A stretch of DNA of 64,000 nucleotides, taken from Paludibacteraceae bacterium. GTDB taxonomy: Bacteria; Bacteroidota; Bacteroidia; Bacteroidales; Paludibacteraceae. The position numbers were made by a program, and so were the translations under genes. Below are positions 15,490-62,767 of the stretch, piece by piece (the first letter of the stretch is position 1; each line of letters starts with the position of its first letter). Location of the stretch: NCBI GenBank assembly GCA_017387515.1, contig JAFOFC010000052.1, positions 2,773 to 66,772 on the forward strand, read 5' to 3'. The notes under the pieces were generated by a model that saw nothing but the letters and a program-made list of their open reading frames with translations, did no database searches and was not told the origin of the DNA.

Positions 15490-15498
15490 TATAAAGCC

Positions 15499-16653: not shown

Positions 16654-16657
16654 AATC

Positions 16658-17977: not shown

Positions 17978-18063
17978 GATGTGTTAGTTTAAATCCGCAC
18001 AAAAATACAGATTTTTCTTGAATATTAGGAATAAATATAGGTAGTTTCTTATAGGGGTAGGTA

Positions 18064-18100
18064 TAAAAAACAATGGGTTACCACGCCTGGTAACCCATTG
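18064..18100 (-). terminator. intrinsic terminator after the META-domain gene
   Basis: Perfect hairpin CAATGGGTTACCA/TGGTAACCCATTG (18071-18100), followed on the minus strand by TTTTTTA. Confidence 0.75.
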
Positions 18101-18232
18101 CCCCATCTTAATTCTTAATCTTTTTCTTACGAAGAAAACTAATATGTCACAAAGGTAATTGTTTTTTATATTGCTGTCAAGTATTTGTCTTAAAAAGATA
18201 TTATTAATAACAAATATTAACATTGCAATGTT

Positions 18233-18661: not shown

Positions 18662-18675
18662 TCTTGTTATGTGGT

Positions 18676-18714
18676 TAAAAAAAGTAGTTGTAAGGATTGC
18701 CCCTACAACTACTT
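18676..18714 (-). terminator. intrinsic terminator after nifJ
   Basis: Hairpin AGTAGTTGTAGGGG/CCTTACAACTACT on the minus strand, followed by TTTTTTT. Confidence 0.65.
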
Positions 18715-18737
18715 TGACGTTATAAACTTGTTAAGGT

Positions 18738-44713: not shown

Positions 44714-44733
44714 TTAGTATTATATAATAAGGT

Positions 44734-46020: not shown

Positions 46021-46023
46021 TCC

Positions 46024-46671
46024 ATGAAAAAGTATTTCATTATAGCAGCTATGGCATTGGTGTCGCTATCGGCATCGGCACAAGTAGCTTTTGGTATTAA
46101 GGCAGGTTTTGTAACCTCTTTGGGCTTTGAACAAAATTGGAGCGCCATCAACTTTGATAATTTAAAAATTAAAACCGATCAGGCTTATGGTTTTGATGCG
46201 GGTTTGATGTTGCGTGTAGGTTATCGTTTTTATGGTCAAATAGAAGCTAACTACCATTTTGTTACATCGCTAAATTCTATTGGTCAATCGATAGAAGATA
46301 CATGGAACGGTGTTCCTACCGAACAACAGTTAACCGAACAATCGATTAATATTCCTGTGATGGCCGGTGTTAAGTTGGTAGAAACCAAAAACTTTAACTT
46401 GCGTTTAATGGTGGGCCCAACCTTTAACTTTAATATTGGTAAAAACGGTGCAATACAAGCCCAAGGCGTTGATTCAGAACTAAAAACCTGTTCGTTTGGT
46501 CTAGATTGTGGTATTGGTATGGATATTTGGGTGTTCTCGCTAGATGCCCGTTACCGTTTGGTACAACCAGGCTATGCGTATAAAGTAGAAGACATGGTGT
46601 TAAATACCAGCCCTATCAACTCGTTCGAGGTGTCGTTGGGATGGAAAATTTTTGATAAAACAAAACGATAA
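46024..46671 (+). CDS. small outer-membrane beta-barrel protein (porin-family / OMP_b-brl_2-like)
   Basis: 215-aa ORF with a signal peptide, then AQVAFGIKAGF... and alternating beta-strand patterns, ending in ...FEVSLGWKIF. It starts 4 nt after the TolC stop. Confidence 0.55.
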   Translation: MKKYFIIAAMALVSLSASAQVAFGIKAGFVTSLGFEQNWSAINFDNLKIKTDQAYGFDAGLMLRVGYRFYGQIEANYHFVTSLNSIGQSIEDTWNGVPTEQQLTEQSINIPVMAGVKLVETKNFNLRLMVGPTFNFNIGKNGAIQAQGVDSELKTCSFGLDCGIGMDIWVFSLDARYRLVQPGYAYKVEDMVLNTSPINSFEVSLGWKIFDKTKR

Positions 46672-46682
46672 AATAAATAGAT

Positions 46683-47696
46683 ATGAATAAGATTGTAACG
46701 ATTTTGGCTTCGATGGCATTGGTAGTATCGATGGCATCGTGTACCGAAGAACAAACTACTGTTCAAGAAGTTGAAAAGGTAGAAAAGGTGCAAGTAATGA
46801 AATTAGCTACCACCGAGATTGAGCGTGAAGTAATTTTACCAACTACACTAGAAGGATACGACAATATGAAAGTATCTTCTTCTGTGAGCGGTATTATCGA
46901 CGAAATCTTAGTAAAAGTAGGCGATAGAGTGTCTAAAGGTCAGTTGTTGGTAAAAATGGATCCTACTCAATATACAACTACCAAACTTACCTATGCTAAT
47001 TTGGGTGTAGAAATGAGCCGTATGGAAGCGTTGAAAGCCGCTGGTAGCATTTCGCAACAAATTTATGACCAAACTAAAACCCAATACGAACAAGTAAAGG
47101 AACAATTGGCCCTTTACGAGAGCAATACGTTTGTACGCGCCGATTTTGCAGGTGTTATTTCGGCTAAAAACTTTGAAAATGGTGAGCTTTGCGCAGGTCA
47201 ACCCATTCTTCAACTTACTCAAATTAATAAGTTGAAAGCATTTGTTAATGTGCAAGAAAACTACTTCCCTTACCTTAAAAAAGGGATGAAGTTAAACATT
47301 ACTTCAGAGATTTATCCCGATAAGGTATTTGAAGCTATCATCGAAACGGTATTCCCAACCATCGATCCTTCTTCACATACTTTCTCTGTAAGAATACAGA
47401 TACCTAATGCATCAGAAACCTTGCGTCCTGGTATGTACGTATCTACCTCTATTTCTGTAGGTAAAGTAAAAGGTATGTTGGTTCCTTATCAATCAGTGTT
47501 GAAACTAATTGGTTCTAACGAACGTTATGTGTTTGTAAACGATGGTGGTAAGGCAAAACGCGTAATCGTTACTTTGGGTAAACGTTTTGACCGCGATGTA
47601 GAGATTATCTCTGATGAATTAAAAGAAGGTGACGAACTAATTGTGGTTGGTCAAGGTCGTTTGGTAGACGGCGTAAAATTGGAAATTGTTAAATAA
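46683..47696 (+). CDS. RND efflux periplasmic adaptor (membrane fusion protein)
   Basis: 337-aa lipoprotein (SMASC) with a biotinyl-lipoyl-like hairpin (VSGIIDEILVKVGDRVSKGQLLVKMD) and a coiled-coil hairpin, followed by beta-barrel and MP domains. Confidence 0.85.
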   Translation: MNKIVTILASMALVVSMASCTEEQTTVQEVEKVEKVQVMKLATTEIEREVILPTTLEGYDNMKVSSSVSGIIDEILVKVGDRVSKGQLLVKMDPTQYTTTKLTYANLGVEMSRMEALKAAGSISQQIYDQTKTQYEQVKEQLALYESNTFVRADFAGVISAKNFENGELCAGQPILQLTQINKLKAFVNVQENYFPYLKKGMKLNITSEIYPDKVFEAIIETVFPTIDPSSHTFSVRIQIPNASETLRPGMYVSTSISVGKVKGMLVPYQSVLKLIGSNERYVFVNDGGKAKRVIVTLGKRFDRDVEIISDELKEGDELIVVGQGRLVDGVKLEIVK

Positions 47697-47705
47697 TAAG
47701 CAGTT

Positions 47706-50700
47706 ATGAGTATTTACAAGACGGCGATAAATAAACCCGTTACCACTATACTTATCTTTATAGCGGTAATGATCATTGGTGCGTTTTCGTATATAAAACT
47801 GCCCATTGACCAAATGCCAGAAATGGACCCTCCATACATCATGGTAATGTGTACCTACCCAGGTGCCAATGCTACCGAAATGGAGACAAACATTACTAAG
47901 GTACTAGAAAATAGTTTGAACTCGGTAGACGGGTTAAAAGAAATTACTTCTAAATCAAAAGACAATATTTCTGTGGTAACCCTAGAACTAGAGTGGGGTA
48001 CCAATATGGACGAGGCGGTAAACGACGTTCGTTCGTACATTGATATTGTAAAAGATAACCTGCCCGATGGAACATCAAACCCCTTTATCTTTAAGTTTAG
48101 TTCTAGTTCTATGCCTATTATTCAATATGCGATTACAGCAGAAGAATCGTATCCAGGGCTAGAAAAATTATTAGACGACGAGGTAATTCCATTGCTAAAC
48201 CAAGTAGACGGGGTGGGTAATATCTCTATGTCTGGTCAACCCGAACGTTACGTGTACGTAGATATTGATCAGGCTAAATTAGATGCTTATCATATTCCAC
48301 TAGAACTAGTTGGTAGTGCAATTAGCGCAAACAACTTGAACATGGCATCGGGTAGCGTTAAAATGCTTGACGAACAATACCAAGTGCAAGTACGTAGTGA
48401 ATACTTAGAAAGTGCTGAAATAGAGAATGTTGTAGTAACTACTACTCCTCAAGGTAAGCAAATCTACGTACGCGATTTGGCTACCGTGCGCGATACCATC
48501 AAAGACCTTACCCTAGACGAAAAAATTAACAGCCGCGACGGGGTACGTTTGGTCATTATGAAACAATCGGGTGCCAATACCGTGCAAATTTGCCGCGAGT
48601 TGAATAAGAAAATGGAGCAAATTAAGAGTCAATTGCCTCCCGATATTCACATTGATGTGGTGTACGACTCATCAGAAGATATTCAAAACTCTATCGACTC
48701 ATTGATTGAATCTATTTTGTATGCGCTACTATTTGTGGTATTGGTAGTGTTGTTCTTCTTGGGTCGTTGGCGTGCAACCTTGATTATTAGTGCTACCATT
48801 CCTATTGCCTTGATTGTGGCATTTATCTACTTGTTGTTTGTAGGTAGTTCGTTGAATATCATTTCTTTGTGTTCGCTTACTATTGCTATTGGTATGGTGG
48901 TAGACGACGCCATTGTGGTATTGGAAAATATTACCTCTCACATAGAACGTGGTTCTAACCCTCGCGAGGCGGCTATTTATGCTACCAACGAGGTGTGGGT
49001 ATCCGTTATTGCAACTACATTAGTTATTGTGGCTGTGTTCGTGCCTCTAACCATGCTTACCGGTTTTGCTGGTATTATGTTTAAAGAATTGGGCTGGATT
49101 GTTACCATTGTAGTATGTACTTCTACGGTAGTGGCCATTACCTTAACCCCTATGCTTTCTTCTAAGCTATTACGTGCTAAAAAAGTACGTGTAGAAAACG
49201 GCAAACTAATAGAAGAATCGGTTCAAGCTGGCTGGTATCAAAAATACGTGGTAGGCATGTTAGACAAAGTGGATGCTTTCTATGCTAAGGCATTGGGTGC
49301 TTGCTTGCGCCATAAAGCCTTAACTTTGGTAACGGTATTTGCTTTATTTATAGCGTCGATGATTCCAGCGTATTTAGGCTTTGTAGGTACCGACTTTATG
49401 CAAAAAACCGACAACGGTCGTTTAACTGTAAAGGTGGAATTGCAACGTTCTACCCGTGTAGAAGAAACTGCTGCATTGGCTCGTCAGTTAGAAGCACGTA
49501 TTATGGAATTAGTGCCAGAGGTACGTATGTTGTCTTCTACTACTGGTTCGCCTGACGATGCTGGTTTCTCGGCCTTGATTAACAATACCTCTAACAACAA
49601 GCTACAAATGACGGTGGTTTGTTCTAAAAAACACGAACGTGAACGTAGTATATTTACTATCGCAGAGGAGATTCGTAAAGAATTGGCTCAATACCCACAA
49701 ATTTTAGACTATAGCTGCGAATTGGCAGGTGGTTTTGGTGGCGGTGGGGTATCTACCGTAGATATTGAGGTGTATGGTTACGATTTTGATGCTACCAACC
49801 TTTTTGCTGAACAAATTAAGCGTACCGTTAAAGACCTAGAAGGTGCACGCGACGTTACGGTAAGCCGCGACGAAGACCGTCCCGAGTTAAAAGTGGTGGT
49901 AGATAAAGAAAAAGCTGCCCGTCATGGATTAAATTCGGCAACCGTAGCTACTTATGTACGTAGCCGTATTAATGGTTATACCGCTGGTTACTTAAAAGAA
50001 GACGGCGATGAATACGATATTTTGGTTCGTTTGTCGGAATCAGACCGTAACTCGATATCGGATATAGAAAACTTAACCATACCTACTCAAACAGGTAAGT
50101 TGATAAAACTAAGCGAGTTAGCCAGTGTAGAAGAATACTTGGCTCCACCCGAAATTGAACGTAAAACGCGTCAACGTATGCTAACCATTAAGGTAACTCC
50201 TCACGAAGTATCGTTGGGTGAATTAGCAGCGGCTATCCAGGCCGTGGTAGATCCTATGGAACGTCCTGCTGGTGTAACCGTTCGTTATGGTGGTGATTAC
50301 GAAGAACAACAAGAAAGCTTTGCCGATATAGGTTTGTTGTTTGCCTTGATTATCATCTTGGTGTACGTGGTGATGGCTTCGCAATTTGAATCGTTAAGCA
50401 AACCTTTCATCATCATGATGTCTGTGCCATTTGCTATCTCGGGTGTAATTATATCGCTTTGGGTAACAAGTACTTCGCTCGATATGATTGGTGCATTAGG
50501 TATTGTTATGTTGGTGGGTATTGTGGTTAAAAACGGTATTGTGCTAGTAGACTACATTAACCTAATGCGCGACCGTGGCTACGAACTGAACGAGGCTATT
50601 CAACTATCGGGTCAATCGCGTTTGCGCCCTGTGTTGATGACTGCCTTTACCACCCTATTGGGTATGGTGCCCATGGCAGTAAGTAGTGGCGAAGGTTCAG

Positions 50701-50879
50701 AAATGTGGCAACCATTGGGTATTGTGGTAATTGGTGGTTTGTTGGTATCTACCTTGGTAACCCTAATTGTAGTACCCGTAATGTATGGCATTATGTCGCG
50801 CCACGGCGAACGCGATAAAGAAGAGCAACAACGTCGTGATTACATATTTATGCAAATAGACGAAAACTTAGAAAAATAG
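47706..50879 (+). CDS. RND (AcrB/HAE1-type) efflux transporter permease
   Basis: 1057-aa ORF with a 12-TM, two-large-loop architecture. It has N-terminal KPVTTILIFIAVMIIG, plus GMVVDDAIVVLENI and VGIVVKNGIVLVDY. Confidence 0.95.
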   Translation: MSIYKTAINKPVTTILIFIAVMIIGAFSYIKLPIDQMPEMDPPYIMVMCTYPGANATEMETNITKVLENSLNSVDGLKEITSKSKDNISVVTLELEWGTNMDEAVNDVRSYIDIVKDNLPDGTSNPFIFKFSSSSMPIIQYAITAEESYPGLEKLLDDEVIPLLNQVDGVGNISMSGQPERYVYVDIDQAKLDAYHIPLELVGSAISANNLNMASGSVKMLDEQYQVQVRSEYLESAEIENVVVTTTPQGKQIYVRDLATVRDTIKDLTLDEKINSRDGVRLVIMKQSGANTVQICRELNKKMEQIKSQLPPDIHIDVVYDSSEDIQNSIDSLIESILYALLFVVLVVLFFLGRWRATLIISATIPIALIVAFIYLLFVGSSLNIISLCSLTIAIGMVVDDAIVVLENITSHIERGSNPREAAIYATNEVWVSVIATTLVIVAVFVPLTMLTGFAGIMFKELGWIVTIVVCTSTVVAITLTPMLSSKLLRAKKVRVENGKLIEESVQAGWYQKYVVGMLDKVDAFYAKALGACLRHKALTLVTVFALFIASMIPAYLGFVGTDFMQKTDNGRLTVKVELQRSTRVEETAALARQLEARIMELVPEVRMLSSTTGSPDDAGFSALINNTSNNKLQMTVVCSKKHERERSIFTIAEEIRKELAQYPQILDYSCELAGGFGGGGVSTVDIEVYGYDFDATNLFAEQIKRTVKDLEGARDVTVSRDEDRPELKVVVDKEKAARHGLNSATVATYVRSRINGYTAGYLKEDGDEYDILVRLSESDRNSISDIENLTIPTQTGKLIKLSELASVEEYLAPPEIERKTRQRMLTIKVTPHEVSLGELAAAIQAVVDPMERPAGVTVRYGGDYEEQQESFADIGLLFALIIILVYVVMASQFESLSKPFIIMMSVPFAISGVIISLWVTSTSLDMIGALGIVMLVGIVVKNGIVLVDYINLMRDRGYELNEAIQLSGQSRLRPVLMTAFTTLLGMVPMAVSSGEGSEMWQPLGIVVIGGLLVSTLVTLIVVPVMYGIMSRHGERDKEEQQRRDYIFMQIDENLEK

Positions 50880-50885
50880 TAAGCC

Positions 50886-51179
50886 ATGAAATCTGTATTT
50901 ATTGTATTTAACCAAGCCAATACCGAACGTGTAGAGTACATGTTGGATATGTTAAAAATTAGTGGCTTTACCTTTTTTGAACAAGTGCAAGGTCGTGGTA
51001 CCAATGGGGGCGAACCCCGTCGTGGTACCCATACTTGGCCCGAAATGAACTCGGCCATTATGACCGTTATCGAAGACGAAAAAGTGCCCGAATTATTAAG
51101 CGTAGTGCGCAAATTAGATGCCCGAAACAAAGAAGTAGGGGTGCGTGCTTTTGTTTGGAACATAGAACAAACCGTTTAA
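50886..51179 (+). CDS. small P-II-like (GlnB-fold-like) transporter-associated protein
   Basis: 97-aa ORF starting 7 nt after the RND stop. It follows a beta-alpha-beta, Gly/Arg-rich loop, beta-alpha-beta pattern and aligns by eye with GlnB (MKSVFIVFNQANTERVEYMLDMLKISGFTFFEQVQGRGTNGGEPRRGTH...). I recall a PG0541-type family at this position in Porphyromonas. Confidence 0.55.
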   Translation: MKSVFIVFNQANTERVEYMLDMLKISGFTFFEQVQGRGTNGGEPRRGTHTWPEMNSAIMTVIEDEKVPELLSVVRKLDARNKEVGVRAFVWNIEQTV

Positions 51180-51204: not shown

Positions 51205-51242
51205 AAGCGCCAACTGCTGTTTAAGGTAGTTGGCGCTTTTGT
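51205..51242 (+). terminator. intrinsic terminator closing the efflux operon
   Basis: AAGCGCCAACT ... AGTTGGCGCTT hairpin followed by TTTGTT. Confidence 0.65.
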
Positions 51243-51400
51243 TACAATAATATTACAAAACGATTAAGAAATAGCGGTGGATTTTTGCTTTTGCTCTTCT
51301 TTTATCAACAATCAATTAGTTAGGCACAATAATTTAGCCTCTGTTCCGTTATAATATCGTATTTTTAACCCCAAATTGTAAATTAACTAATTTATATACA

Positions 51401-54400
51401 ATGAGAAAGCAGTTTAATCTACTATCATTAACGTTATTTGTTCTTTTCAGTTTTGCTGTTGCTTCGGTAAATGCGCAAACTGTTCCCGGAACTGCAAAGC
51501 CGGGCTATCAATTACCTAATGCTAGTTTTGAGGATTGGAGCGGTCCTGAATTTAGCGGAGAAAAGACTATGCCAGACTGGCATGGTTCAAATATCTCGCA
51601 AGCAGGGCAAAATGTAGCCGTTGTGCATCCTAGTTCAGATGCTCATTCGGGTTCTAAATCCGTTCAATTAAGAGATACATTTGTTGGGCTGGGAAGTATT
51701 GGTGCGGTATCTCCTTCGTGGATAACGTTGGGTACTCCATGGTCTTACTTGCCAAGTATAACAGAGGTAGACAAGGCTACGGCTGGTACAGATGGTGGAA
51801 TTGCTTTTAGATATCGTCCCGATGCTATGACCGTGTGGATAAAACGAAAATCGGATGGAAAAGAAAATATCCACTTGGTATATTATTCGTGGAGTAAACA
51901 ATCTGTGGGTACAAAATACTTAGGAAAAGGAGGAGGTTGTACTTCTACCGATCCACACTACAATGAAGAGTCGGATATTCGCCAAGAGCAAGATGGTAAT
52001 ACGTGTGGCACTGATATATTCGCGAATCACATTGCTGACGGCGAAATTATTACCAAAGCTCAATACGATAAATGGACACAGATTACAGTGCCTATTAAGT
52101 ACACTAAAAATGATATCCCCGAGATGATGAATATCATTTTATCGGCATCTAACTATCCACAAGGAAGAACTAATTCGGGCATGGTGGATGGAAACTATAT
52201 GTTGGTGGATGATATACAACTTATTTACAGTTCAAAGGTTGATGTGTTGAAGTTAGGCGGGGAACCTTTGTATGGTTTTAACAAGGATAAATACGAATAT
52301 GTCGTAGAACTTGGCGACAAGGCTACTGCTAAGGATATTCCCGATGTAAGTTGTGAGCGTAGCGGTCGTTCTTTGCAAGGTAGTGAAATCACCATCCAAA
52401 AAGCATCAGATATAGGAAAATCTACCATTATTACGGTAAAGGCAGAAGATGGTTCTTCTACTACTACCTACACCGTTACTTTTGTGCGTAACTTGTCGGT
52501 TAACTCGCTAGCAGAAGCTATTTATGTAAACGGAGAGGCTATTCCTGGTTTTAATGGCAATGTAACCGATTACGATGTTACCGTGCCTTACGGAACCAAC
52601 CAGGCTCCAGCAATTACCGTAACCAAAGCCGAAGAGGCTCAAACGGTAGAGGTGGAATCGTGCAGCAACTTCCCTTGCGTTGCCAAGGTAAAAGTGTATG
52701 CCGAAAACCTAAATATAAGCACCACGTATACCCTTAACTTAAAATGGGGTAAACTTACCGATAATACCTTACAAAACATTTTAATTAACGGAAATCCTAT
52801 TACTGGATTTAATCCTACCCAAAACAGGTATACGGTAGAAATTCCTTTGGGAACTACGCAAGACCCAACTATTCAAGCGGTTTCTAACTATCCCGATGGT
52901 GCGCAAACTATTCAAATTACCAACAACGGATTAAATGGATCATCGTCTACGGTAAAAGTAACACCACAAGAAGGCGATCCTCGTACCTACATCATTACCT
53001 ACAAAATTACCGAATCTAGCTATTCGTACTTAAAAAATATTATGCTAGATGGTGTAGGCATAGAAGGCTTTGAACCTAGCAAAACCGATTACAACATTGC
53101 ATTGCCCGTAGGTACTACTACCTTGCCAACCATTACTTGGGAACAAGGCGATGCTTACCAAACCGTTGTGCCTACCTATAATGGCGTAAATGGCGTATCT
53201 CGTATTACCGTTACCGCACAAAACAAACAAAATAGTACCAACTATCGTTTGTCGTTTACGGTTCAAAAATCTACCAACAATAAACTGAATAATTTATTGG
53301 TAGACGGGGTGGCTATTTCTGGTTTTGATCCTAATGTAACCGATTATACCTACAACGTAAATCCTGCAGCAACCTCTCGTCCTGTAGTTACTTGGGAGGC
53401 TGGCGATGCTTACCAAGTGGTTACCAAGAACCCTGCATCAGAAGCTACCGCTACCATCGAAGGGGTAACCAAGGTAACGGCTCGCGCTCAAGATGATTCT
53501 AGAACGGTTTACAACATTACCTTTACACAACAACTATCCGATAATGCTAAATTGGCCGATTTGAGTGTTGAAGGTAATACCTTGTCGCCTGTATTTAGTG
53601 CAGACCAAACCGATTATACATGCGAGTTACAACGTGGTACAACCGTATTGCCTGCTATTAACGTTGTAAAAGGCGATGCAACCCAAAGTGTACGTATCGA
53701 AGAAAATGGTGTAAACGGCACCGCTAAAATTACCGTTAAGGCGCAAAAAGGAAATAGCATGGTGTACACCATTGCCTTCTCGGTACCAACATCGTCCGAT
53801 GTAACCCTAAAAGACATTTTGGTAGGTGGTGAGTCGGTTCAAGGTTTTGATCCTGCTACCTTAACCTATACCATTACCTTGCCTGCTGGTACTACCGCTT
53901 TGCCTAGCATCGAAGCGGTTAAAAACGATGCTGCGCAACGTGTTATCATAAACAAAGGCGGTGTAAATGGCACTACTACCTTGCGCGTAGTGGCCGAAAA
54001 CGGTGCAGAACAAACCTATAACCTAGTGTTTAGCGTAGAAAAATCGTTGAATGCTACCCTTAAAAATATTGTTGTAGGCGATGTTGATCTACCTGGTTTT
54101 GACCCAGACGTGTTGGATTATACCTATGTGTTATCGTCTGACGTAACCCGTTGCCCAATTGTAGAGGCCGAAGGTTATGCTGGTCAAACCATTACCATTA
54201 CCATGCCTCAATTGTTGGGTACTGCACGCATCGAGGTGCAACCCGAGGTAGGCGGTAAAAACGTATATACCATTCGTTTTGTCAACCAAATGTCGGATAA
54301 CAATCAGCTAGCCGATATTCAAGTAAATGGTAGTACAATTGCAGGTTTTGATGCCGCTGTAACCAACTACCAAGTAGAATTGCCTTTGGGAACTACCGCG

Positions 54401-57400
54401 CTTCCTGTAGTAACCTATACCAAAGCCGATGCTAACCAAACCGTGCAATTGATTCAGCCTGCTTTGACTGGGCCTACTCAATTGGTGGTAAAAGCCGAAA
54501 ATGGAAGCATCAATACCTACACCATTAACTTTAGCGTAGCACATTCTGATAATGCTCTTTTGGATGCTATTTACCTAGATGGTAACTTGATAAACGAATT
54601 TGCTGCTACTACGTTGAATTACCAAATTACCTTGCCAGCAGGTACTACTACCTTACCCGTTGTAACCTATAAAAAAGGCGACGAGGCGCAACGTGTTATA
54701 GCTTCTATGCCACAAGCAGCGGGCGTTACTACCTTGCAAGTAATTTCTGAAGACGGTACGCAAACCAATACTTATACCATTACCATGGCAGTGGCACCAT
54801 TTGACGATGCTACCTTAAAGAATATTTTGGCCGATGGTGTTACTATAGACGGATTTAATCCTGATGTTACTGCTTACACCCTTAACGTAGTAAATGGCAA
54901 TGCAGCTCCTGCTATTACCTATCAAAAACAAGATGCTACCCAACAAGTGGTAGTAAACAACCAAGGTTTGTTGGGCTGTACCCTTACCGTTACGGCACAA
55001 AGTGGTGCTACCAGTACCTATGTGATTAACTATAACGTTGTTCCTAACGGTAAAGCCTTGTTAAAAGATATTCAAACCTATAAAGCATCGTCGTTTGTTT
55101 CTATAGATGGCTTTGATGCTGCTACCTTTGAATACAACATTACCTTGCCTTGGCGTACAACAAGCTTGCCTGTTATTAACCCAGTTGCCGGTGCAAAAGG
55201 TCAGGTTATTACCTTAACCGAAGGTTCTGTTAACGGTACTACTACCATTCATGTATTGGCCGACGATGGTTCTGAAACTACTTATCAATTGCACTTTGCT
55301 GTAGAACAAAGCAACAATGCTTCGCTTAGCAATATTTTAATTGGTGGTAACTACTTAGAAGAGTTTAAAGCAGACCAATTGGATTATGTGGTAACGTTGC
55401 CTTACGGAACCACACAAGCACCCGTTATAGAGTACGAAAATGCTACCAAAGATGGGGTTGCCATTACCGAACAACAAATTGTACTAACTGCTGGAGGTAT
55501 AAAAGGTGTGTCTAGCATTCAAGTAACCTCGCAAGACGGTTCTGCTACCCAAACCTATACCATTCGCTTTAACGTAGCCGAATCGGATAAACCCAATCAG
55601 TTGGCTCGCTTAATTGCGGGTAGCGTACCTGTTACTTTGCAAGATGGTGTATTTAACTACGATGTTACCTTGCCATACGGCACCACTTCTTTGCCAGATT
55701 TGCTATACGATAAAAACTACCAAGAACAAGAGGTTAGGGTAGCCAAAATGGGTTATGGTTATCAAATTACCGTGGTATCTAATATGCCTGGTGTTGATGA
55801 TGTGGTGTACAACCTGCATTGCAAAGTGGCTCCATCGCCTCAATCGTTGTTGGGCGTTGAATTGAAAAACGGTGCTACCTTGTATCCTGCATTCGATCCT
55901 AATGTAACCCAATACATTGCCAAAGTAAACGAGAAAGAAGATGCTACCGCATTGTACGATGATGTATTGAATAATGTTAAGATAGTAGAATCTACCGATA
56001 AAAAATTTGTGGTTACCTTAACCAGCAAAACTAATCCTTCTAGTAGCATTACCCACACCATTTATTACTACTACCAAAACGATGTGGTTCCTAATGGTGA
56101 GTTTACCCAGTGGACAACCCCTATAAATAACGGAGATAGGGGAGCTGTAAAACCAACAGGCTGGAATGTGCCTGCAGACGCAGATAGCGGTGGAGGTGTA
56201 GGAACCTATACTGGCACTGAGGTAGTTAAAACTAATAACAGTGTTGTTGGTCTTAAAACAACCCGATATTGGGACCTAGGTTGGGCTGGTAGTATTATTC
56301 CGGCGTTTATGACCACAGGTACTGTTACCGGTGCTTTAGAAGTTAGTGCTGGTACTCATTTTGAGGTGTCGGGTGGTGTTACCTTCCGCAATACGCCACA
56401 AGCCATTACAATAGGTTATAATTTCCCTACTAAAAAAGGCGATGGTGCGTTGTTCGGTATTCGTTTTTATGCGGGTACAACCGAGTACAAGTACGATTAC
56501 ATCGTACAAACGCAAACTTCAAACTATACAGAATATACTAAGCAATTAGACTTAGATGGTAAAAATATTACCTATATGAATCTTATTGTCAATGCAACCA
56601 ATCAATTTAAAGGTGATAATGGTACAAATAAGCATGGTGCTAGGATTAATATTGATTACATTCGCTTGGTTTACAACAAGTCGCTTACTAGCATGACGGT
56701 TAATGGGGTACAGGCTACCCGCAATGGTAATAGCTTTGCTGCAACCATCGATACTGAATTCTTTGGAACGCCAGCAACTACGTTCAAAGGCGAAGTGCCC
56801 GACCAAGCTTACGAGGTAATTTGGGGAGAAGAAAAGAATGGCGTACGCACAGCCACTGTTCGTTGCTATGCAGAAGATACCTCTTATAACGATTATACTT
56901 TGACTGTTACCCGTAAGCAATCTACCGATAATACCTTAAAAGAATTGGTAGTAGCAGGTGCAGAATCGATGGTATTTAACCCTGCTACCTTGCAATACGA
57001 TGTGGTGTTGCCTTATGAACAAAATACCTTGCCCGATGTATCGGCAGCAGCCAATTCAAATTATGCTACAGTAGCCATTAGCGGTGTTAATAACCTAAAC
57101 ACTACCAATGCATCAACCCTTAGCGTTGTGGTAACTCCCGATAAGGCCGATGCTGCTGCTAAAGAATACAAAGTGAAATTTACCAAGCTGGCTCCTAGCA
57201 GCGATGCTACTTTAAAGAACTTGGTAGTAGAAGGCTACGACATTGCTTACGATGCTGCTAATCTTACATATAACGTAACCTTACCTGCTGGTACAACTGT
57301 AATGTCTGCAGTAAGTTTTGAAAAACAATTGGACGACCAAAACGTAGTAATGACCTTGGGTACCACCACCACCTTGTTGGTAACAGCTCAAGATGGAACT

Positions 57401-60400
57401 ACCCAACAAACCTATCAAGTGGTATTTAACGTAGAAGCAGCTGCTCCTACTACCGCTCAACTAAGCTTGTTAGAGGTAGATAATGCGTTGCCACTGCAAC
57501 CTACATTTAGCAGCGAAGAGTACAATTATACCACCTCGCTAACCGATAACAACCCTGCTGCGGTTGTTTATGGTAAAGTAGCAACCGATAAATTGGTTAT
57601 GCAATTAACCGACCAGATGGCAACCTTGGTACTGGATAATTTAAATGGTGTTACCCACCAATACCAAGTATCGTATGCCAAATTACCTTCTAACAATGCT
57701 TTATTGCAAGATATTTTGGCAGATGGTGCAAGCGTAGAACACTTTGCTTCTGCCAACTTTGATTACGAAGTACCATGCACCGAAGGACAGGTAATTGATT
57801 TGGAACCCGTATTGATGGAAGAAGGTCAAACCATGACCATAACCTTTGATCAAGTGGCTCAGATGTATAGCATTGTAGTTACATCGCCCGATAAATCGGT
57901 AGAACGAACCTATACCGTTACCTTGGTAGTTCCTACCAATAATGCCGATTTGGCAGGTATCTTGATAAACGGTGTGATGATTGACGACTTTAACAAGGAT
58001 CAATTAGCATATACCGTTAATCTACCTGTAGAAAATCCTAAATGGAGCGAACCTGCTATGCCAAGCATCGAAGCCATTGCTGGTGCCAAAGGTCAAACCG
58101 TTGAGGTGGAAGTAAACGATCTAAACGAGGTAACCTATATTACGGTTACAGCACAAGATGGTAAAACACAAAAAGTATACGAGTTGGCTATTAATGCTAA
58201 ACCTTCTAATAATGCTTATTTAGCATCGATTGCCGCTAATTACGACGTGTTGCCTCTGTTTGAGCCTACTCAGTTGACTTATTCAATAGAAGTTGCAGCC
58301 TCTGAAGAACGTCCTGAAATTACCTATCAAAAAGGTGATGGCTTCCAACAAGTAAACGAAGTAGAAGAAGGTGATAAATACTTACTAGAAGTAACCGCTC
58401 AAGATGGTACTACTAAAAATGTGTACGAAATTACCTTTGTAACCGTTTACAACAACAACGCACAACTAGCCGGTATTACGTTAGATGGTGAATTGCTATC
58501 AGGTTTTGAACCTAATACATACGAATACAATGTAGAGTTGCCTGTAGGTACCACTGTATTGCCTATAATTGGTGTAATTAACGGTGCCGATGGCCAAACC
58601 ACCCAAGTGGTAACCAATGGCGTAAACGGCGATGCTGTTATTACCGTTACCGCCGATGATGGTCAAACTAGCAAAGATTATACCATTCATTTCTCGGTAA
58701 AACAATCGGATGTAGATACCTTGTTGGATATTCAAGTAGATGGTGAAAGTATTTTTGTTCCTGATCAATATGAATACACCGTTCCATTAGAAGTAGGTAC
58801 GCGCGTATGGCCTGTTGTTACCTGGACAGCGGGCGATGCTTACCAAACGGTAACTCCTGCCGAAAACGAATTGGATACATGGAACAAAGTGGTTACCTTG
58901 GTTACTTTGGCGCAAGATGGCTTGCACAGTAAAACGTATACCGTAAACTTGCAAGTTGCCAAATCAAACAACGCTGCCTTAAAAGACATTCAATTGGATA
59001 ACGAATCGTACGCAGGTTTTAACCCCGAAACTACCGATTACACCATAGAATTGCCTATTGGTACTACTACCTATCCAGAAGTAACCTATACCGAAGGCGA
59101 TGCTTACCAAAGCGTAGAAAAAGTAGTAAACGGCAATGTGGTTACCTTGTATGTAGTGGCAGAAGATGGTAGTGACCGTACCTATACGCTAACATTTGAA
59201 ATTTTGCACTCTAGCAATGCAAACTTGAATGGTATTTATGTAAATGACGAGTTAATAGATAACTTTGATCCTGCTACCCTAGAATACGATTATGTACTAC
59301 CTTATGGCACTACCGAAATGCCCGAAGTAACCTACGAAAAAGGCGATAAGTGGCAAGTAGTGGCTACCAATAGCGGTGGTATAAATGGTAACTATACCCT
59401 TCACGTAGTAGCCGAAGATGGTATTAGCGAGAAAGTATACATTATTTACTTTAGCGTGGCTAAATCTGATAATGCGTTGCTAAGTGATATTTTGGTAGAT
59501 GGTACATCGATAGCAGATTTTGATGCTGAAGTATATACCTATAACGTAGGCATTCCTTATGGCGAAACCGTTATTCCTACTATAGAAGGCGTAGCAAGCA
59601 TGGAAACGCAAATTGTAGAAGAAGTGCAAGCTACTTCTGTTAACGAGGTTTCTACTATTACCGTAACGGCCGAAGATGGCACCACCCAAAAACAATATAC
59701 CATTAGCTGGTACAACAAACCTTCTACCAACAATAAATTGAACATGATTTATTTGGATGGTGAATCGTTGGATAAGTTTGATAAAGAAGAATGGGAATAC
59801 CATGTAACCCTTCCTTACGGAACAACCCAATTGCCTACCATTACATGGGATAAAGGCGACGAAGACCAAACCGTCAACTTGAGTATAGAAGATAAGTTGG
59901 CTCTAATTACCGTAACGGCTCAAAATGGCGACCAATTTGATTACTATATCTATTTCACCATTGAAAAATCGGCCGAAAATCGTTTGAAAAATATCTATAT
60001 TAATGGTAAACAACTAGAGGGCTTTGATCCTGAACAAACAGAGTATGATTTTGTATACCCTGCAGGAACTCCAGTAGAAGATGTGCCAACCCTAGAAGAT
60101 GTTACTTACGAAGTGTTCGATCCTATCGAAACGGTAACGCCAATGAGCAATGATTTAACCTTGATTTTGCGTGTAACGGCCGAAAATGGTGATATTAGAA
60201 CCTATGTAATTACCCAAAGCATAGCCCTACACGATAATAGCTATTTGGCTGATATTCAAATTAACGGCGAATCGTTGCCAGACTTTGAACCCGAAAAATT
60301 AGAGTACGTATACAAGTTGCCATTTGGTTCAACTTCGGTACCCGAAGATATTGTCTATATTAGTGAAGACCCAACACAACGCGTTACCATCGCTATTAAC

Positions 60401-60781
60401 CAATTGGGCATGCCTACCGAAATTTTCGTAACTGCCGAAGATGGTAGCAAGTCGGTATACCGCATCCACTTTATGGTTGATGACTTTGATCCTACTACCG
60501 CACCTACGGCCGATAATGTATGCATTACTAGCCAACCAGACGGTAGCTGGAAATTTACCACCAATTGTGCCAATGTTACCCTTTACTTGGTAACCTTAGA
60601 TGGTAAAGTGTTGGTACAAGCTCCACTAGAATTGGTAGACGTAAATGTACCCGATATTTGTAGTCCAGAAGCAGAAGGCTATGTGTACGATGCAGGAATC
60701 GACAATATTATTGCCTACTACTTTATGCACAACATGAAAACCGTAGTATTAAGTGGTAAATTTAGGGTATCGCACTATTAA
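51401..60781 (+). CDS. 3126-aa secreted repeat protein: signal peptide, PCMD-like domain, ~15 cadherin-like repeats, second PCMD-like domain, ~15 cadherin-like repeats, unique C-terminal domain
   Basis: Single uninterrupted ORF of 9381 nt with signal peptide MRKQFNLLSLTLFVLFSFAVASVNAQ. It is flanked by terminators at 51205-51242 and 60806-60838. Subfeatures give the domain evidence. Confidence 0.85.
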   Translation: MRKQFNLLSLTLFVLFSFAVASVNAQTVPGTAKPGYQLPNASFEDWSGPEFSGEKTMPDWHGSNISQAGQNVAVVHPSSDAHSGSKSVQLRDTFVGLGSIGAVSPSWITLGTPWSYLPSITEVDKATAGTDGGIAFRYRPDAMTVWIKRKSDGKENIHLVYYSWSKQSVGTKYLGKGGGCTSTDPHYNEESDIRQEQDGNTCGTDIFANHIADGEIITKAQYDKWTQITVPIKYTKNDIPEMMNIILSASNYPQGRTNSGMVDGNYMLVDDIQLIYSSKVDVLKLGGEPLYGFNKDKYEYVVELGDKATAKDIPDVSCERSGRSLQGSEITIQKASDIGKSTIITVKAEDGSSTTTYTVTFVRNLSVNSLAEAIYVNGEAIPGFNGNVTDYDVTVPYGTNQAPAITVTKAEEAQTVEVESCSNFPCVAKVKVYAENLNISTTYTLNLKWGKLTDNTLQNILINGNPITGFNPTQNRYTVEIPLGTTQDPTIQAVSNYPDGAQTIQITNNGLNGSSSTVKVTPQEGDPRTYIITYKITESSYSYLKNIMLDGVGIEGFEPSKTDYNIALPVGTTTLPTITWEQGDAYQTVVPTYNGVNGVSRITVTAQNKQNSTNYRLSFTVQKSTNNKLNNLLVDGVAISGFDPNVTDYTYNVNPAATSRPVVTWEAGDAYQVVTKNPASEATATIEGVTKVTARAQDDSRTVYNITFTQQLSDNAKLADLSVEGNTLSPVFSADQTDYTCELQRGTTVLPAINVVKGDATQSVRIEENGVNGTAKITVKAQKGNSMVYTIAFSVPTSSDVTLKDILVGGESVQGFDPATLTYTITLPAGTTALPSIEAVKNDAAQRVIINKGGVNGTTTLRVVAENGAEQTYNLVFSVEKSLNATLKNIVVGDVDLPGFDPDVLDYTYVLSSDVTRCPIVEAEGYAGQTITITMPQLLGTARIEVQPEVGGKNVYTIRFVNQMSDNNQLADIQVNGSTIAGFDAAVTNYQVELPLGTTALPVVTYTKADANQTVQLIQPALTGPTQLVVKAENGSINTYTINFSVAHSDNALLDAIYLDGNLINEFAATTLNYQITLPAGTTTLPVVTYKKGDEAQRVIASMPQAAGVTTLQVISEDGTQTNTYTITMAVAPFDDATLKNILADGVTIDGFNPDVTAYTLNVVNGNAAPAITYQKQDATQQVVVNNQGLLGCTLTVTAQSGATSTYVINYNVVPNGKALLKDIQTYKASSFVSIDGFDAATFEYNITLPWRTTSLPVINPVAGAKGQVITLTEGSVNGTTTIHVLADDGSETTYQLHFAVEQSNNASLSNILIGGNYLEEFKADQLDYVVTLPYGTTQAPVIEYENATKDGVAITEQQIVLTAGGIKGVSSIQVTSQDGSATQTYTIRFNVAESDKPNQLARLIAGSVPVTLQDGVFNYDVTLPYGTTSLPDLLYDKNYQEQEVRVAKMGYGYQITVVSNMPGVDDVVYNLHCKVAPSPQSLLGVELKNGATLYPAFDPNVTQYIAKVNEKEDATALYDDVLNNVKIVESTDKKFVVTLTSKTNPSSSITHTIYYYYQNDVVPNGEFTQWTTPINNGDRGAVKPTGWNVPADADSGGGVGTYTGTEVVKTNNSVVGLKTTRYWDLGWAGSIIPAFMTTGTVTGALEVSAGTHFEVSGGVTFRNTPQAITIGYNFPTKKGDGALFGIRFYAGTTEYKYDYIVQTQTSNYTEYTKQLDLDGKNITYMNLIVNATNQFKGDNGTNKHGARINIDYIRLVYNKSLTSMTVNGVQATRNGNSFAATIDTEFFGTPATTFKGEVPDQAYEVIWGEEKNGVRTATVRCYAEDTSYNDYTLTVTRKQSTDNTLKELVVAGAESMVFNPATLQYDVVLPYEQNTLPDVSAAANSNYATVAISGVNNLNTTNASTLSVVVTPDKADAAAKEYKVKFTKLAPSSDATLKNLVVEGYDIAYDAANLTYNVTLPAGTTVMSAVSFEKQLDDQNVVMTLGTTTTLLVTAQDGTTQQTYQVVFNVEAAAPTTAQLSLLEVDNALPLQPTFSSEEYNYTTSLTDNNPAAVVYGKVATDKLVMQLTDQMATLVLDNLNGVTHQYQVSYAKLPSNNALLQDILADGASVEHFASANFDYEVPCTEGQVIDLEPVLMEEGQTMTITFDQVAQMYSIVVTSPDKSVERTYTVTLVVPTNNADLAGILINGVMIDDFNKDQLAYTVNLPVENPKWSEPAMPSIEAIAGAKGQTVEVEVNDLNEVTYITVTAQDGKTQKVYELAINAKPSNNAYLASIAANYDVLPLFEPTQLTYSIEVAASEERPEITYQKGDGFQQVNEVEEGDKYLLEVTAQDGTTKNVYEITFVTVYNNNAQLAGITLDGELLSGFEPNTYEYNVELPVGTTVLPIIGVINGADGQTTQVVTNGVNGDAVITVTADDGQTSKDYTIHFSVKQSDVDTLLDIQVDGESIFVPDQYEYTVPLEVGTRVWPVVTWTAGDAYQTVTPAENELDTWNKVVTLVTLAQDGLHSKTYTVNLQVAKSNNAALKDIQLDNESYAGFNPETTDYTIELPIGTTTYPEVTYTEGDAYQSVEKVVNGNVVTLYVVAEDGSDRTYTLTFEILHSSNANLNGIYVNDELIDNFDPATLEYDYVLPYGTTEMPEVTYEKGDKWQVVATNSGGINGNYTLHVVAEDGISEKVYIIYFSVAKSDNALLSDILVDGTSIADFDAEVYTYNVGIPYGETVIPTIEGVASMETQIVEEVQATSVNEVSTITVTAEDGTTQKQYTISWYNKPSTNNKLNMIYLDGESLDKFDKEEWEYHVTLPYGTTQLPTITWDKGDEDQTVNLSIEDKLALITVTAQNGDQFDYYIYFTIEKSAENRLKNIYINGKQLEGFDPEQTEYDFVYPAGTPVEDVPTLEDVTYEVFDPIETVTPMSNDLTLILRVTAENGDIRTYVITQSIALHDNSYLADIQINGESLPDFEPEKLEYVYKLPFGSTSVPEDIVYISEDPTQRVTIAINQLGMPTEIFVTAEDGSKSVYRIHFMVDDFDPTTAPTADNVCITSQPDGSWKFTTNCANVTLYLVTLDGKVLVQAPLELVDVNVPDICSPEAEGYVYDAGIDNIIAYYFMHNMKTVVLSGKFRVSHY
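51479..52237 (+). other. PCMD-like domain 1 (aa ~27-279)
   Basis: It begins QLPNASFEDWSG and ends GNYMLVDDIQLIYSSK. This is the N- and C-terminal pattern I associate with the Bacteroides putative carbohydrate metabolism domain (PF13201). Confidence 0.5.
52238..56074 (+). repeat. protein-level tandem array 1: ~15 units of ~85 aa (cadherin-like beta-sandwich type)
   Basis: A recurrent pattern, for example LKDILVGGESVQGFDPATLTYTITLPAGTTALPSIEAVKNDAAQRVIINKGGVNGTTTLRVVAENGAEQTYNLVFSV. The units are divergent at the DNA level. Confidence 0.7.
56075..56680 (+). other. PCMD-like domain 2 (aa ~1559-1760)
   Basis: It begins QNDVVPNGEFTQWTT and ends GARINIDYIRLVYNK, the same terminal signatures as domain 1. 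Confidence 0.45.
56681..60481 (+). repeat. protein-level tandem array 2: ~15 units of ~85 aa (cadherin-like beta-sandwich type)
   Basis: For example LAGITLDGELLSGFEPNTYEYNVELPVGTTVLPIIGVINGADGQTTQVVTNGVNGDAVITVTADDGQTSKDYTIHFSV. Confidence 0.7.
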
Positions 60782-60805
60782 TCGGATTGATTAACAGTAT
60801 ATAAA

Positions 60806-60838
60806 AAAGCCGAAAATTTTGATTTTCGGCTTTTTTTA
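60806..60838 (+). terminator. intrinsic terminator after the giant gene
   Basis: AGCCGAAAAT-TTTG-ATTTTCGGCT hairpin followed by T7. Confidence 0.8.
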
Positions 60839-60839
60839 T

Positions 60840-60847
60840 TATTTTTG
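60840..60847 (+). promoter_or_regulatory. putative -7 promoter box (TATTTTTG) for the CotH-like gene
   Basis: It lies 37 nt upstream of the ATG at 60884, immediately after the terminator. Confidence 0.35.
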
Positions 60848-60883: not shown

Positions 60884-62767
60884 ATGAAAAAATCATTACT
60901 TCTATTATTAACCTTATTGGTTGCAGCAACCACTTTTGCTGTAGACATTCCAAAAGGGACATTTTATTACGACAACTCCATTACTAAGTTTGAAACGGTA
61001 AAGTTTGCTTATGGCGATAGGGATGCTAAAGGTACCGTGTTGGTAACTTTGACGCATCAAGGAAATGACATTTGGTCGTATACCGTTCCATCGACTGTTG
61101 AGGATGTGTACCGCTATATTTTTTTAGAAACGGCATTGCAAGATGGCGTACATAATTACACGTTCTCCGAATTTAAAGATTGGATTGCCAATGAACGTGG
61201 CGAAATTAGAACCGCTACTACCGATGAAACCATTACCTCTGGTTATACTTTTGTGCCCGAAAATAACTTAGAACGTAATTGGTACCAAGGAGAGTGGGTA
61301 AATAACAATGGCGAGGCTCTAACCCCTAAACCAACACCCGAATTGCCTCAGGCCAATTGCAAACCACATTCTAATACGTTGCCCGTATTTTATTTGAATA
61401 CCAAAAATGGTGTGGCTATTGAATCTAAAGAAGTATACGTAGAAGGAAGCTTGTATATTGACGCATCGAACAGTCAAGGTTATGAATCGGCGGGCAGTGC
61501 TGCAAGTCCTCTGGTAACCGAGGTTAAAGGACGTGGCAACTGGACATGGCGTGGTTTTGATAAAAAACCTTATCGTATTAAAATGGACAAAAAAGCATCG
61601 CTTTTAAACATGACCACCGATAAGAGTTATAACTTATTGGCCCATGCCGACGATAACTATGGCTTTTTGCGTAACACAGCTGGTTTTGCGTTGAGCCGTT
61701 ATTTTGGTATGCGTTATACGCCTACACAAGAACCAGTAGAGTTGGTATTAAACGGCAAATACAATGGCTTGTATTTCTTAACCGATCATATTAAAGTGTC
61801 TAGTAATCGTGTAAAGATAACCGAGCAAGACGATAACGAAACCGATCCTACTGCAGTTACTGGTGGATGGTTGTTAGAAATAGATAACTACGACGAAGAT
61901 CCCCATATTACCATCTATAAAAAAGATGAATACGGCGAACCCATGTGGTTTACCTACAAATCGCCCGAAGAATTGTCGTACCAACAAGAAGCTTACATAA
62001 CCAACTTCTTAAACATGGTCAACGACGCCATTTATGCCGAAGATAAAAGCAGCACCGAATGGGAAAAATACGTTGATATGGATACCTTGGTAAATTACTA
62101 CCTAATTTACGAAATTTTGGGTAATAGAGAAGGATTCCACGGTAGTTGTTATTTGCACAAAGACAGAGGTGCTAATACCAAATTGATTTTTGGCCCTGTA
62201 TGGGACTTTGGTAATACCCTTTGGAATATGGATAATACCTTTATATACGAAGATTATCCTTATGGTATTAAGTGGATTGACGAGATTGCCAAATTCCCTC
62301 GTTTCCAAGCTGCCGTACGTAAACGTTGGCAAGAAACCCGTGGCGATTTGGTGCCCTACTTGCGCAAAGAGGTAAATGCCTTTATCGATAAAATTGTGTA
62401 TGCATCGCAATGCGACTGTAAAAAATGGCCCGAATACGGCAATGCCAATGTGTTAGAACGCAAAGATGCCTTTATGAAATTGATTACCGACCGTTTGGCT
62501 TGGTTGGATACCCAATTTGGTCACGTAGGTGTAACCGAAGAGCAAAACGAAACCTTGAGCGTATTCCCTAATCCTACTCGTGGCAATGTGCAAATTGCCT
62601 CGCAAGATGCCGTTGAACAAGTAGAATTGTGCGATTTGTCGGGTAAAGTAATTGAAACCTTTACAGGAAATGTAACCAAGTTGCAACTAAATGCGGCTAA
62701 AGGTACTTACCTATTAAAAGTTTATACAGATCAAGAAGTACAAGTTCGCAAATTAATTATTTACTAA
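60884..62767 (+). CDS. CotH-family (atypical kinase-like) protein with an N-terminal beta-rich region and a T9SS CTD
   Basis: 627-aa ORF with a signal peptide. The CotH-like core includes KGRGNWTWRGFDKKPYRIKMDKK...YNLLAHADDNYGFLRNTAGFALSRYFGMRYTPTQEPVELVLNGKYNGLYFLTDHIKV...FGPVWDFG. The C-terminus has VFPNPTRGNVQIAS...GTYLLKVY...RKLIIY. Confidence 0.75.
   Translation: MKKSLLLLLTLLVAATTFAVDIPKGTFYYDNSITKFETVKFAYGDRDAKGTVLVTLTHQGNDIWSYTVPSTVEDVYRYIFLETALQDGVHNYTFSEFKDWIANERGEIRTATTDETITSGYTFVPENNLERNWYQGEWVNNNGEALTPKPTPELPQANCKPHSNTLPVFYLNTKNGVAIESKEVYVEGSLYIDASNSQGYESAGSAASPLVTEVKGRGNWTWRGFDKKPYRIKMDKKASLLNMTTDKSYNLLAHADDNYGFLRNTAGFALSRYFGMRYTPTQEPVELVLNGKYNGLYFLTDHIKVSSNRVKITEQDDNETDPTAVTGGWLLEIDNYDEDPHITIYKKDEYGEPMWFTYKSPEELSYQQEAYITNFLNMVNDAIYAEDKSSTEWEKYVDMDTLVNYYLIYEILGNREGFHGSCYLHKDRGANTKLIFGPVWDFGNTLWNMDNTFIYEDYPYGIKWIDEIAKFPRFQAAVRKRWQETRGDLVPYLRKEVNAFIDKIVYASQCDCKKWPEYGNANVLERKDAFMKLITDRLAWLDTQFGHVGVTEEQNETLSVFPNPTRGNVQIASQDAVEQVELCDLSGKVIETFTGNVTKLQLNAAKGTYLLKVYTDQEVQVRKLIIY
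62555..62764 (+). other. T9SS type-A C-terminal sorting domain of the CotH-like protein
   Basis: LSVFPNPTRGNVQIAS...LCDLSGKVIETF...GTYLLKVYTDQEVQVRKLIIY. Confidence 0.75.

Follow-up and report, generated by a model that had tools for sequence, protein, structure and literature searches.

In antigen I/II (AgI/II) adhesins, two intertwined repeat regions form the stalk that carries the head (PMC12701859). We analysed a stretch of 64,000 nucleotides (the window) from a gut-dwelling Paludibacteraceae bacterium (assembly GCA_017387515.1, contig JAFOFC010000052.1), in which one gene (51401..60781, + strand) encodes a giant protein with two arms of repeated units. The arms are matched in length, vary in length only together and co-evolve in an antiparallel register. 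The protein starts with a signal peptide (residues 1-25, 51401..51475, +) and a PCMD-like beta-sandwich, here called the N-domain (residues 26-279, 51476..52237, +). Arm A, with units A1-A15 of ~84 aa each (residues 280-1559, 52238..56077, +), leads to a second beta-sandwich of the PCMD superfamily, the M-domain (residues 1560-1760, 56078..56680, +). Arm B, with units B1-B15 (residues 1761-3029, 56681..60487, +), is followed by a conserved C-terminal domain (residues 3030-3126, 60488..60778, +). We read the product as a Sec-exported protein and a putative cell-surface fibre. It would be of a known kind, a fibrillar-adhesin-like surface protein; what is new is the compensatory matching of its arrays and their register-specific co-evolution. 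To our knowledge, compensatory copy-number change of two separate repeat arrays in one protein is undescribed.

Comparison with known surface proteins

Like the giant protein, AgI/II (P1/SpaP of S. mutans, SspB of S. gordonii) has a central head, lectin-like in AgI/II, between two repeat regions of matched length. In AgI/II, the N-terminal part returns to the C-terminal region in an "intramolecular lock", and we propose a similar return for the giant protein. In the AgI/II stalk, which has 3-4 repeats per side, an alpha-helix and a polyproline helix wind around each other, whereas the giant family has 6-29 beta-sandwich domains per arm. Unlike the giant protein, AgI/II proteins are Gram-positive and sortase-anchored. 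The hairpin of the giant protein is inferred rather than solved, and a second homologous head-type domain at its N-terminus has no counterpart in AgI/II. No Pfam family related to the A repeats, V domain, P repeats or C123 of AgI/II was among the matches; the likeness is one of principle only.

Fibrillar adhesins and Periscope proteins (Sgo_0707, SasG, Rib) share with the giant protein a stalk array of beta-sandwiches and a putative binding domain. Measured by the fibrillar-adhesin criteria of Monzon et al. 2021, it has the stalk array and domains whose fold makes binding plausible, and no recognised anchor was found. The same authors were surprised that adhesive domains of Bacteroidetes often sit mid-protein and cited the AgI/II fold-back (PMC8286594). 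Repeat number varies between lineages by tandem amplification in Periscope proteins and in the giant family alike. Periscope proteins have one array of repeats that are near-identical in DNA, whereas the giant family has two arrays that change in step, a stable 15+15 layout and units diverged in DNA. The giant gene lacks highly identical DNA repeats in one array: there is no ~255-nt period, and its units are 10-49 % identical as protein. Some relatives do carry recent amplifications (83-91 % protein identity), in both arms at once.

Bacteroidota PCMD proteins share the superfamily of the N- and M-domains. They include ~300-aa proteins made of signal peptide, PCMD and Por_Secre_tail, proteins that combine PCMD with SprB repeats, and the proteins of structures 3hbz and 3s30. 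As in the giant protein, the domain is N-terminal, and a stalk and then a C-terminal sorting domain, the latter putative in the giant protein, come after it. Unlike it, they have one PCMD, a recognisable type-A tail of a type IX secretion system (T9SS) and no paired arms. We know of no established biochemical function for PCMD. Flavobacterium SprB resembles the giant protein in its several thousand residues, its repeats, its origin in Bacteroidota and its Sec signal peptide. It differs in having another type of repeat, a type-B C-terminal domain and a dedicated partner, SprF, whereas the giant protein has no detectable type of C-terminal domain and no conserved neighbouring gene.

The two arms change length together

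A search with the whole protein returned 886 homologues, with more than 100 clusters of 3085-3200 aa at 37-97 % identity and ~100 % coverage. Relatives that open with an N-domain, close with the C-terminal domain and have one M-domain were counted as complete (n = 176). The two-module organisation proposed from the query alone is real, being conserved in more than 170 relatives. Fifteen units in each arm (15+15) is the layout of 132 of the 176. The layouts 15+14 (seven proteins), 14+15 and 11+11 (four each) follow, and then 6+6, 14+13 and 16+15 (three each) and 10+9, 19+19, 20+20 and 25+25 (two each). Single proteins have 7+7, 8+7, 10+8, 10+10, 10+11, 12+13, 13+15, 14+12, 15+16, 24+23, 26+26 and 29+27 units. 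Several counts that are off by one reflect weak detection of the degenerate unit B4 and not a real difference.

Measured in residues, the imbalance between arms has a median of 0.19 unit, a 95th percentile of 1.14 and a maximum of 2.6. The lengths of arms A and B are correlated with r = 0.98 and a slope of 0.98. Felsenstein independent contrasts, computed on a neighbour-joining tree of the non-repeat domains, give r = 0.982, and 10,000 permutations never yield more than 0.32. In each of the 39 contrasts above 1.5 units, the two arms change in the same direction and by a similar amount. Freely variable repeat numbers would have spoken against two modules, and the numbers vary only together. The near-equal halves noticed in the single sequence are thus a family-wide rule over a five-fold length range, which goes beyond the original prediction.

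The length changes are made of different units in the two arms. When units are labelled by position profiles, arm A gains or loses A5-A7-like units and arm B gains or loses B9-B11-like units, while the ends of the arms (A1-A4 and A8/A11-A15; B1-B8 and B12-B15) are conserved. The relative P0162 (24+23) has a 3-unit period in a5-a16, with copies up to 83 % identical, and in b9-b20, with copies up to 86 % identical. P0083 (29+27) has a 2-unit period in both arms, with copies 88-91 % and 75-90 % identical, and P0087 also has 2-unit blocks in arm A and arm B. In amplified relatives, identity between A and B units reaches at most 41-46 %. We conclude that the changes are independent, arm-specific amplifications and losses that are matched in period, extent and age. 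Selection for equal arms is the simplest explanation.

Origin of the two modules

To compare the arms unit by unit, 30 unit-position profiles were built from the 132 proteins of the 15+15 layout and scored against each other with hhalign (double-centred scores). No diagonal of Ai with Bi appears at any offset (permutation p = 0.84). Only A1 and B1, which directly follow the PCMD-like domains, stand out as alike between arms, and within one arm neighbouring units are most alike. An ancient duplication of the intact ~1560-aa module, one of two origins first proposed, is thus not supported, as unit i of one half does not pair with unit i of the other.

The second proposed origin, a fusion of two tandem paralogues, finds no support either. 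Scanning the species-representative genomes of GTDB confirmed 314 loci, of which 80 were fetched for the analysis of gene splits, neighbours and hosts. The giant gene is one open reading frame (ORF) in nearly all of these, and a two-gene version split at the module border occurs in 0 of the 80. Four loci (L002, L057, L066, L071) carry split genes, whose break points are arbitrary and resemble frameshifts.

In each of the 176 complete relatives, the N-type domain can be told clearly from the M-type, with margins of at least 228 and at least 51 bits. The motif EE[ST]D[IV] is present in 170 of the 176 N-domains and in none of the M-domains. Because the two types are distinct in every protein, their split is old and single. 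Four short relatives of 750-1270 aa (P0216, P0220, P0233, P0245) consist of two or three cassettes, each a PCMD-like domain with one cadherin-like unit, which suggests that this cassette is the basic building block of the giant proteins. Since such cassettes exist in short relatives, the piece that was duplicated was probably a domain with its first unit, copied in one ancient event, after which the arrays would have grown by local tandem duplication.

Equal arms could in principle arise without any function, by repeated duplication of the module, by gene conversion or unequal crossing-over between halves, or by collapse during assembly. In favour of this, the sequence repeats internally, and N and M did arise by duplication. 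Against this stand the distinctness of N and M in all 176 proteins, the low identity of A and B units, the arm-specific nature of the amplified blocks, the lack of a DNA-level repeat here that could mislead an assembler, and the recurrence of the same architecture in hundreds of independent assemblies. We regard equality of this kind as highly improbable. Equal arms are not a by-product of one duplication either, because N and M are distinct and no Ai-Bi diagonal exists.

The arms co-evolve in an antiparallel register

The 132 proteins of the 15+15 layout were also used in a mirror-tree analysis, in which per-unit distance matrices were compared after removal of the common phylogenetic signal. 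When unit Ai is set against B(16-i), the register i+j=16, the mean residual correlation is +0.099, and the other 29 cyclic registers, parallel and antiparallel, range from -0.108 to -0.003. The correlation is positive in 14 of the 15 cells of this register, which ranks first of 30 in both clades (n = 18 and n = 106) and in 200 of 200 bootstraps. Units beside the M-domain do not drive the result, as the mean is 0.092 without A13-A15. With hmmalign alignments, BLOSUM distances and partial correlations, the register reaches 0.109 and the others at most 0.063, and A11-B5 is the second strongest pair overall. After unit similarity and rate are regressed out, the register stands at 0.124 against -0.004 +/- 0.029. 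Chain neighbours, the positive control, give 0.11-0.17. These results show that the arms co-evolve in an antiparallel register, Ai with B(16-i).

Other features of the arms are arranged symmetrically around the M-domain. The variable zones A5-A7 and B9-B11 each lie 8-10 units from M and four units from the outer end. In P0162, a5-a16 of 24 maps to b20-b9 under i+j=N+1 if arm B is assumed to have 24 units; 23 are detected, and with 23 the map shifts by one unit. Divergence peaks beside M (A9-A15 and B1-B7, p-distance 0.54-0.69) and is lowest at the outer ends (0.45-0.52 for A1-A8 and 0.51-0.58 for B8-B15).

The original prediction of one very long fibre is called into question by these data, which favour two paired arms. 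A single-stranded linear fibre would measure ~125 nm and carry heads at its tip (N) and at mid-length (M), the equal arms serving another geometry such as binding tiers at heights h and 2h. In a variant, the product would be a polyprotein cut at the A15/M border into two equal fibres. The linkers between units, of 2-4 residues, are typical of rod-like arrays, relatives commonly combine an N-terminal PCMD head with a stalk and a T9SS tail, and direct coupling analysis (DCA) gives no clear contacts between arms; all three fit a linear fibre. Such a fibre does not predict the co-evolution of Ai with B(16-i) or the mirrored placing of the variable zones. It leaves unexplained why divergence peaks at M and why the N-terminal end, supposedly the most exposed, is the most conserved, and also why the arms stay balanced to a fraction of a unit across a five-fold length range. 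We consider a linear or cleaved product unlikely.

A possible fold-back stalk or antiparallel dimer

The chances appear to us about even that the chain folds back into a hairpin, giving a two-stranded stalk with the M-domain at its apex by analogy with AgI/II. The chain would turn back at the M-domain and arm A would pack on arm B. Ig-like domains measure ~4 nm, and on that assumption the stalk of a 15+15 protein would be roughly 60 nm long. The faster-evolving M-domain would act as the apical binding head, with a ligand that is probably a glycan, and the highly conserved N-domain would come to lie back at the base, beside the C-terminal anchor or export domain. A unit gained in one arm would break the register and would be tolerated only after an equal gain in the other. 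The stalk principle would be that of streptococcal AgI/II, built here from beta-sandwich repeats.

Several observations weigh against a hairpin. The co-evolution effect is small (~0.1-0.12) and requires that the orthology of the units was assigned correctly. Across 1980 pooled unit pairs, mean-field DCA fails to tell the registers apart (the mean of the top 10 is 0.878 for i+j=16 and 0.847 for i=j). The mirrored variable zones amount in essence to one observation, which chance would produce with a probability of roughly 0.1, and the 14+13 clade lost A9/A10 and B3/B4, which are not mirror partners. P0083 has 29+27 units, and P0129 is out of balance by ~2.6 units. No recognisable T9SS signal in Pfam, NCBIfam or hhalign comparisons matches the C-terminal domain that would sit at the base. 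An antiparallel homodimer, finally, gives the same register.

P0129 itself (11+11), the relative with the largest imbalance of the family, has ~170 unassigned residues (1431-1603) directly after its M-domain. They may represent an inserted domain or else two units that have degenerated strongly.

Pairing between two chains would take the form of a cadherin-style trans-dimer for cell-cell cohesion. The chains, anchored on neighbouring cells or else released, would overlap head-to-tail, with arm A on the partner's arm B, the two M-domains facing each other and N opposite the partner's C-terminal end. This layout predicts the register i+j=16, equal arms (with M aligned to M) and the same mirror symmetry. 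It also agrees with the weak signal by which the strongest residual partner of the N-domain is the C-terminal domain (0.17). A hairpin within one chain is the simpler arrangement entropically, with AgI/II as a precedent, and a dimer with full overlap could tolerate unequal arms through an offset of M against M, so that a median imbalance of 0.19 unit is less naturally explained. To us a trans-dimer seems doubtful.

The N- and M-domains

Both non-repeat domains had been proposed to be PCMD domains (PF13201), and this stands in part. The N-domain, scanned alone, matches PF13201 over profile positions 27-234 of 234 with 28.9 bits (E 1.2e-6), a small margin over the gathering threshold of 28, and a scan of the whole protein reports no PCMD match. 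The same family matches 6 of 18 orthologous N-domains (best E 4.2e-10). The M-domain (~1556-1764), scanned alone, has no Pfam match even at E <= 10, PCMD included, so that a lack of significant PCMD matches, which would have spoken against the proposal, applies to one half only. Two of 22 orthologous M-domains do match PCMD (best E 3.2e-4).

Profile comparisons link M to the superfamily. Alignments of N and M orthologues are homologous from end to end (hhalign 98.8 %, E 7.4e-17). Among 1.84 billion representatives, the M-profile retrieves proteins of ~300 aa at E 1e-13 to 1e-9, and these consist of PF13201 (37-68 bits) and Por_Secre_tail. Judged from these profiles, PCMD membership is marginal for N and holds for M at the superfamily level only.

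N and M were each modelled as single domains with AlphaFold2, with a mean predicted confidence (pLDDT) of 90.2 for N and 86.2 for M. Foldseek against the PDB places 3hbz (BT_2081, E 2.4e-7) and 3s30 (BVU_0247, E 2.7e-7) first for the N model, with TM ~0.5; we take both structures to be PF13201 representatives. Further matches of N are carbohydrate-binding modules (CBM16, CBM4, CBM22) and gingipain adhesin domains, and the top matches of M are CBM4-2, CBM70, CBM29 and CBM16. The N and M profiles found no match among PDB sequences, and information came from the fold comparison only. N and M belong to the PCMD superfamily and are homologous to each other, both being jelly-roll sandwiches of the CBM type. 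From the modelled folds we infer that both may bind a ligand, probably a glycan.

Among the three aligned non-repeat domains, N is the most and M the least conserved. N carries an insertion of ~40 aa, absent from M, in which two Cys and an EESDIR motif are invariant. The insertion (residues ~175-205) reads C157…EESDIR…N177-x-C179 in the numbering of alignment A1 and could form a disulfide-bridged loop for ligand or metal binding.

The C-terminal domain and export

The 97-aa C-terminal domain was overlooked in the original prediction. It is conserved across 109 orthologues, with 16 invariant columns that include one invariant Cys, and another Cys is nearly invariant. It may be an export or anchoring signal. 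Neither the query domain nor that of 12 orthologues matches any Pfam or NCBIfam model at E <= 10, including Por_Secre_tail, CHU_C and TIGR04183, and a profile of the domain returned nothing informative from PDB sequences. Compared by hhalign, it reaches 6.9 % with the C-terminal domain of the neighbouring gene and 16.7 % with 30 Por_Secre_tail sequences. It therefore qualifies neither as a T9SS sorting domain of type A (Por_Secre_tail/TIGR04183) nor as one of type B (CHU_C/TIGR04131). A known T9SS C-terminal signal was sought in six separate tests and gave no significant match.

Two other marks of T9SS cargo, a Sec signal peptide and a T9SS in the organism, are in place. The presence of the system is implied by the adjacent CotH-like protein, which bears a Por_Secre_tail. 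The small PCMD relatives also carry a Por_Secre_tail and are T9SS cargo. The C-terminal domain of the giant protein may be a divergent T9SS signal.

The giant gene and its repeat units

The gene is a single ORF of 9381 nt without interruption (3126 codons and a stop), encoding a 3126-aa product of ~340 kDa. Read directly from the translation, the N-terminus is MRKQFNLLSLTLFVLFSFAVASVNA followed by QT (…FAVASVNA/QT), a signal peptide of the signal peptidase I (SPI) type without a lipobox Cys and with predicted cleavage between VNA and QT. Downstream, a terminator scan places an intrinsic terminator at 60803..60846 (+), with a 15-bp stem, a 4-nt loop and a T-rich tail; the stem and T-run take up 60803-60836. 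Upstream, a terminator-like hairpin read directly from the DNA (~51208..51244, +) closes a unit of efflux and P-II genes. It reads GCGCCAACT-N12-AGTTGGCGC, a 9-bp GC-rich stem with a 12-nt loop, and is followed by TTTTGTT. It is absent from the terminator scan because its loop exceeds the scanner's limit of 8 nt. Given this hairpin and the strong terminator downstream, the giant gene is a transcription unit of its own. The initial description of an uninterrupted reading frame with an SPI-type signal peptide between terminators holds, and so does the near-midpoint start of the second module: the second domain begins at ~1556-1560, and the arithmetic midpoint is residue 1563.

Fifteen cadherin-like units follow each domain, as had been predicted. 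A hidden Markov model (HMM) iterated on the protein itself finds 14 strong units and one weak unit, the degenerate A15, in residues 279-1559. In residues 1761-3029 it finds 15 units, with B1 and B4 weak or degenerate. The weak units A15, B1 and B4 are detected by position-specific profiles from orthologues. Summed over the whole protein, the Cadherin-like family PF12733 scores 112.7 bits (E 1.2e-32), far above the gathering cut-off of 24.2, and no single unit passed the per-stretch filter of 0.01. The relative P0090 shows 12 PF12733 stretches at a looser E <= 1.

Tandem Repeats Finder (TRF) reports no repeat of ~255-nt period in the giant gene, so the units are diverged at the DNA level, in agreement with the strong nucleotide divergence described earlier. 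An assembly artefact and recent slippage are ruled out, because TRF finds no DNA repeat and the gene recurs in many assemblies.

Distribution and genomic neighbourhood

The few homologues with names come from Paludibacteraceae or Bacteroidia metagenome-assembled genomes (MAGs). The 80 loci are mostly of Paludibacteraceae, Ca. Enterocola and Ca. Colicola, from the guts of ruminants, horses, pigs, chickens and humans. Seven loci (L037, L040, L053, L056, L064, L066, L078) lie on contigs titled for other taxa: Acutalibacteraceae, Flexilinea, Segatella copri, Dialister, Erysipelotrichaceae, Bacteroides uniformis and Acidaminococcaceae. Mis-binning or mislabelling is likely, as all come from one "cleanbin" series. 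Precomputed annotations give the Pfam labels PF27200.1 and PF21930.3 to P0001, P0004, P0092 and others; the local Pfam copy does not reproduce them.

There is no conserved operon partner, the best flanking cluster occurring in only 15 of the 80 loci, and the efflux and CotH neighbours are common to the closest relatives only. The product of the downstream gene (60884-62767, +) has 627 aa, is CotH kinase-like (PF08757, E 6.5e-33) and bears a Por_Secre_tail (E 4e-10). For gut Bacteroidales, secreting a CotH-like protein is unusual, and outside the closest relatives (L006, L030, L032) this gene does not adjoin the giant one. Upstream (44084-51179, +) lie genes for a TetR regulator, an outer-membrane efflux protein, a small outer-membrane beta-barrel protein, an HlyD-type adaptor and an AcrB-type pump of the resistance-nodulation-division (RND) family. 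A 97-aa P-II-like protein (PF00543, E 2.8e-9) is encoded directly after the pump; it has a homologue in none of the 80 related loci, and the pump is kept in seven.

One locus, L002 (a Paludibacteraceae MAG from sheep rectum), has a second gene with an N-type domain (19283-20732) ~230 bp past the first giant gene (9922-19054). The two look like tandem paralogues. The first copy is broken into ORFs of 401 aa and 2642 aa.

Implications for Bacteroidota surface fibres

Our literature search found no paper on the giant family or on PF13201. We would put it slightly below an even chance that the family is the first example of a self-pairing hairpin stalk made of two beta-sandwich arrays whose repeat number evolves by compensatory amplification (a "matched-arm" rule). 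If this is true, the height of the stalk can change from ~25 to ~120 nm with the register kept. It would also explain why adhesive-type domains are so often placed mid-protein in Bacteroidota surface proteins, and would offer a testable answer to the remark of Monzon et al. on such domains. Matched arms around a central domain would then be a purely genomic signature for finding fold-back surface fibres elsewhere.

Its very high conservation marks the N-domain as a candidate for binding a defined ligand. Because the family is widespread (314 loci), the giant protein probably forms a major structure on the surface of these little-known gut bacteria.

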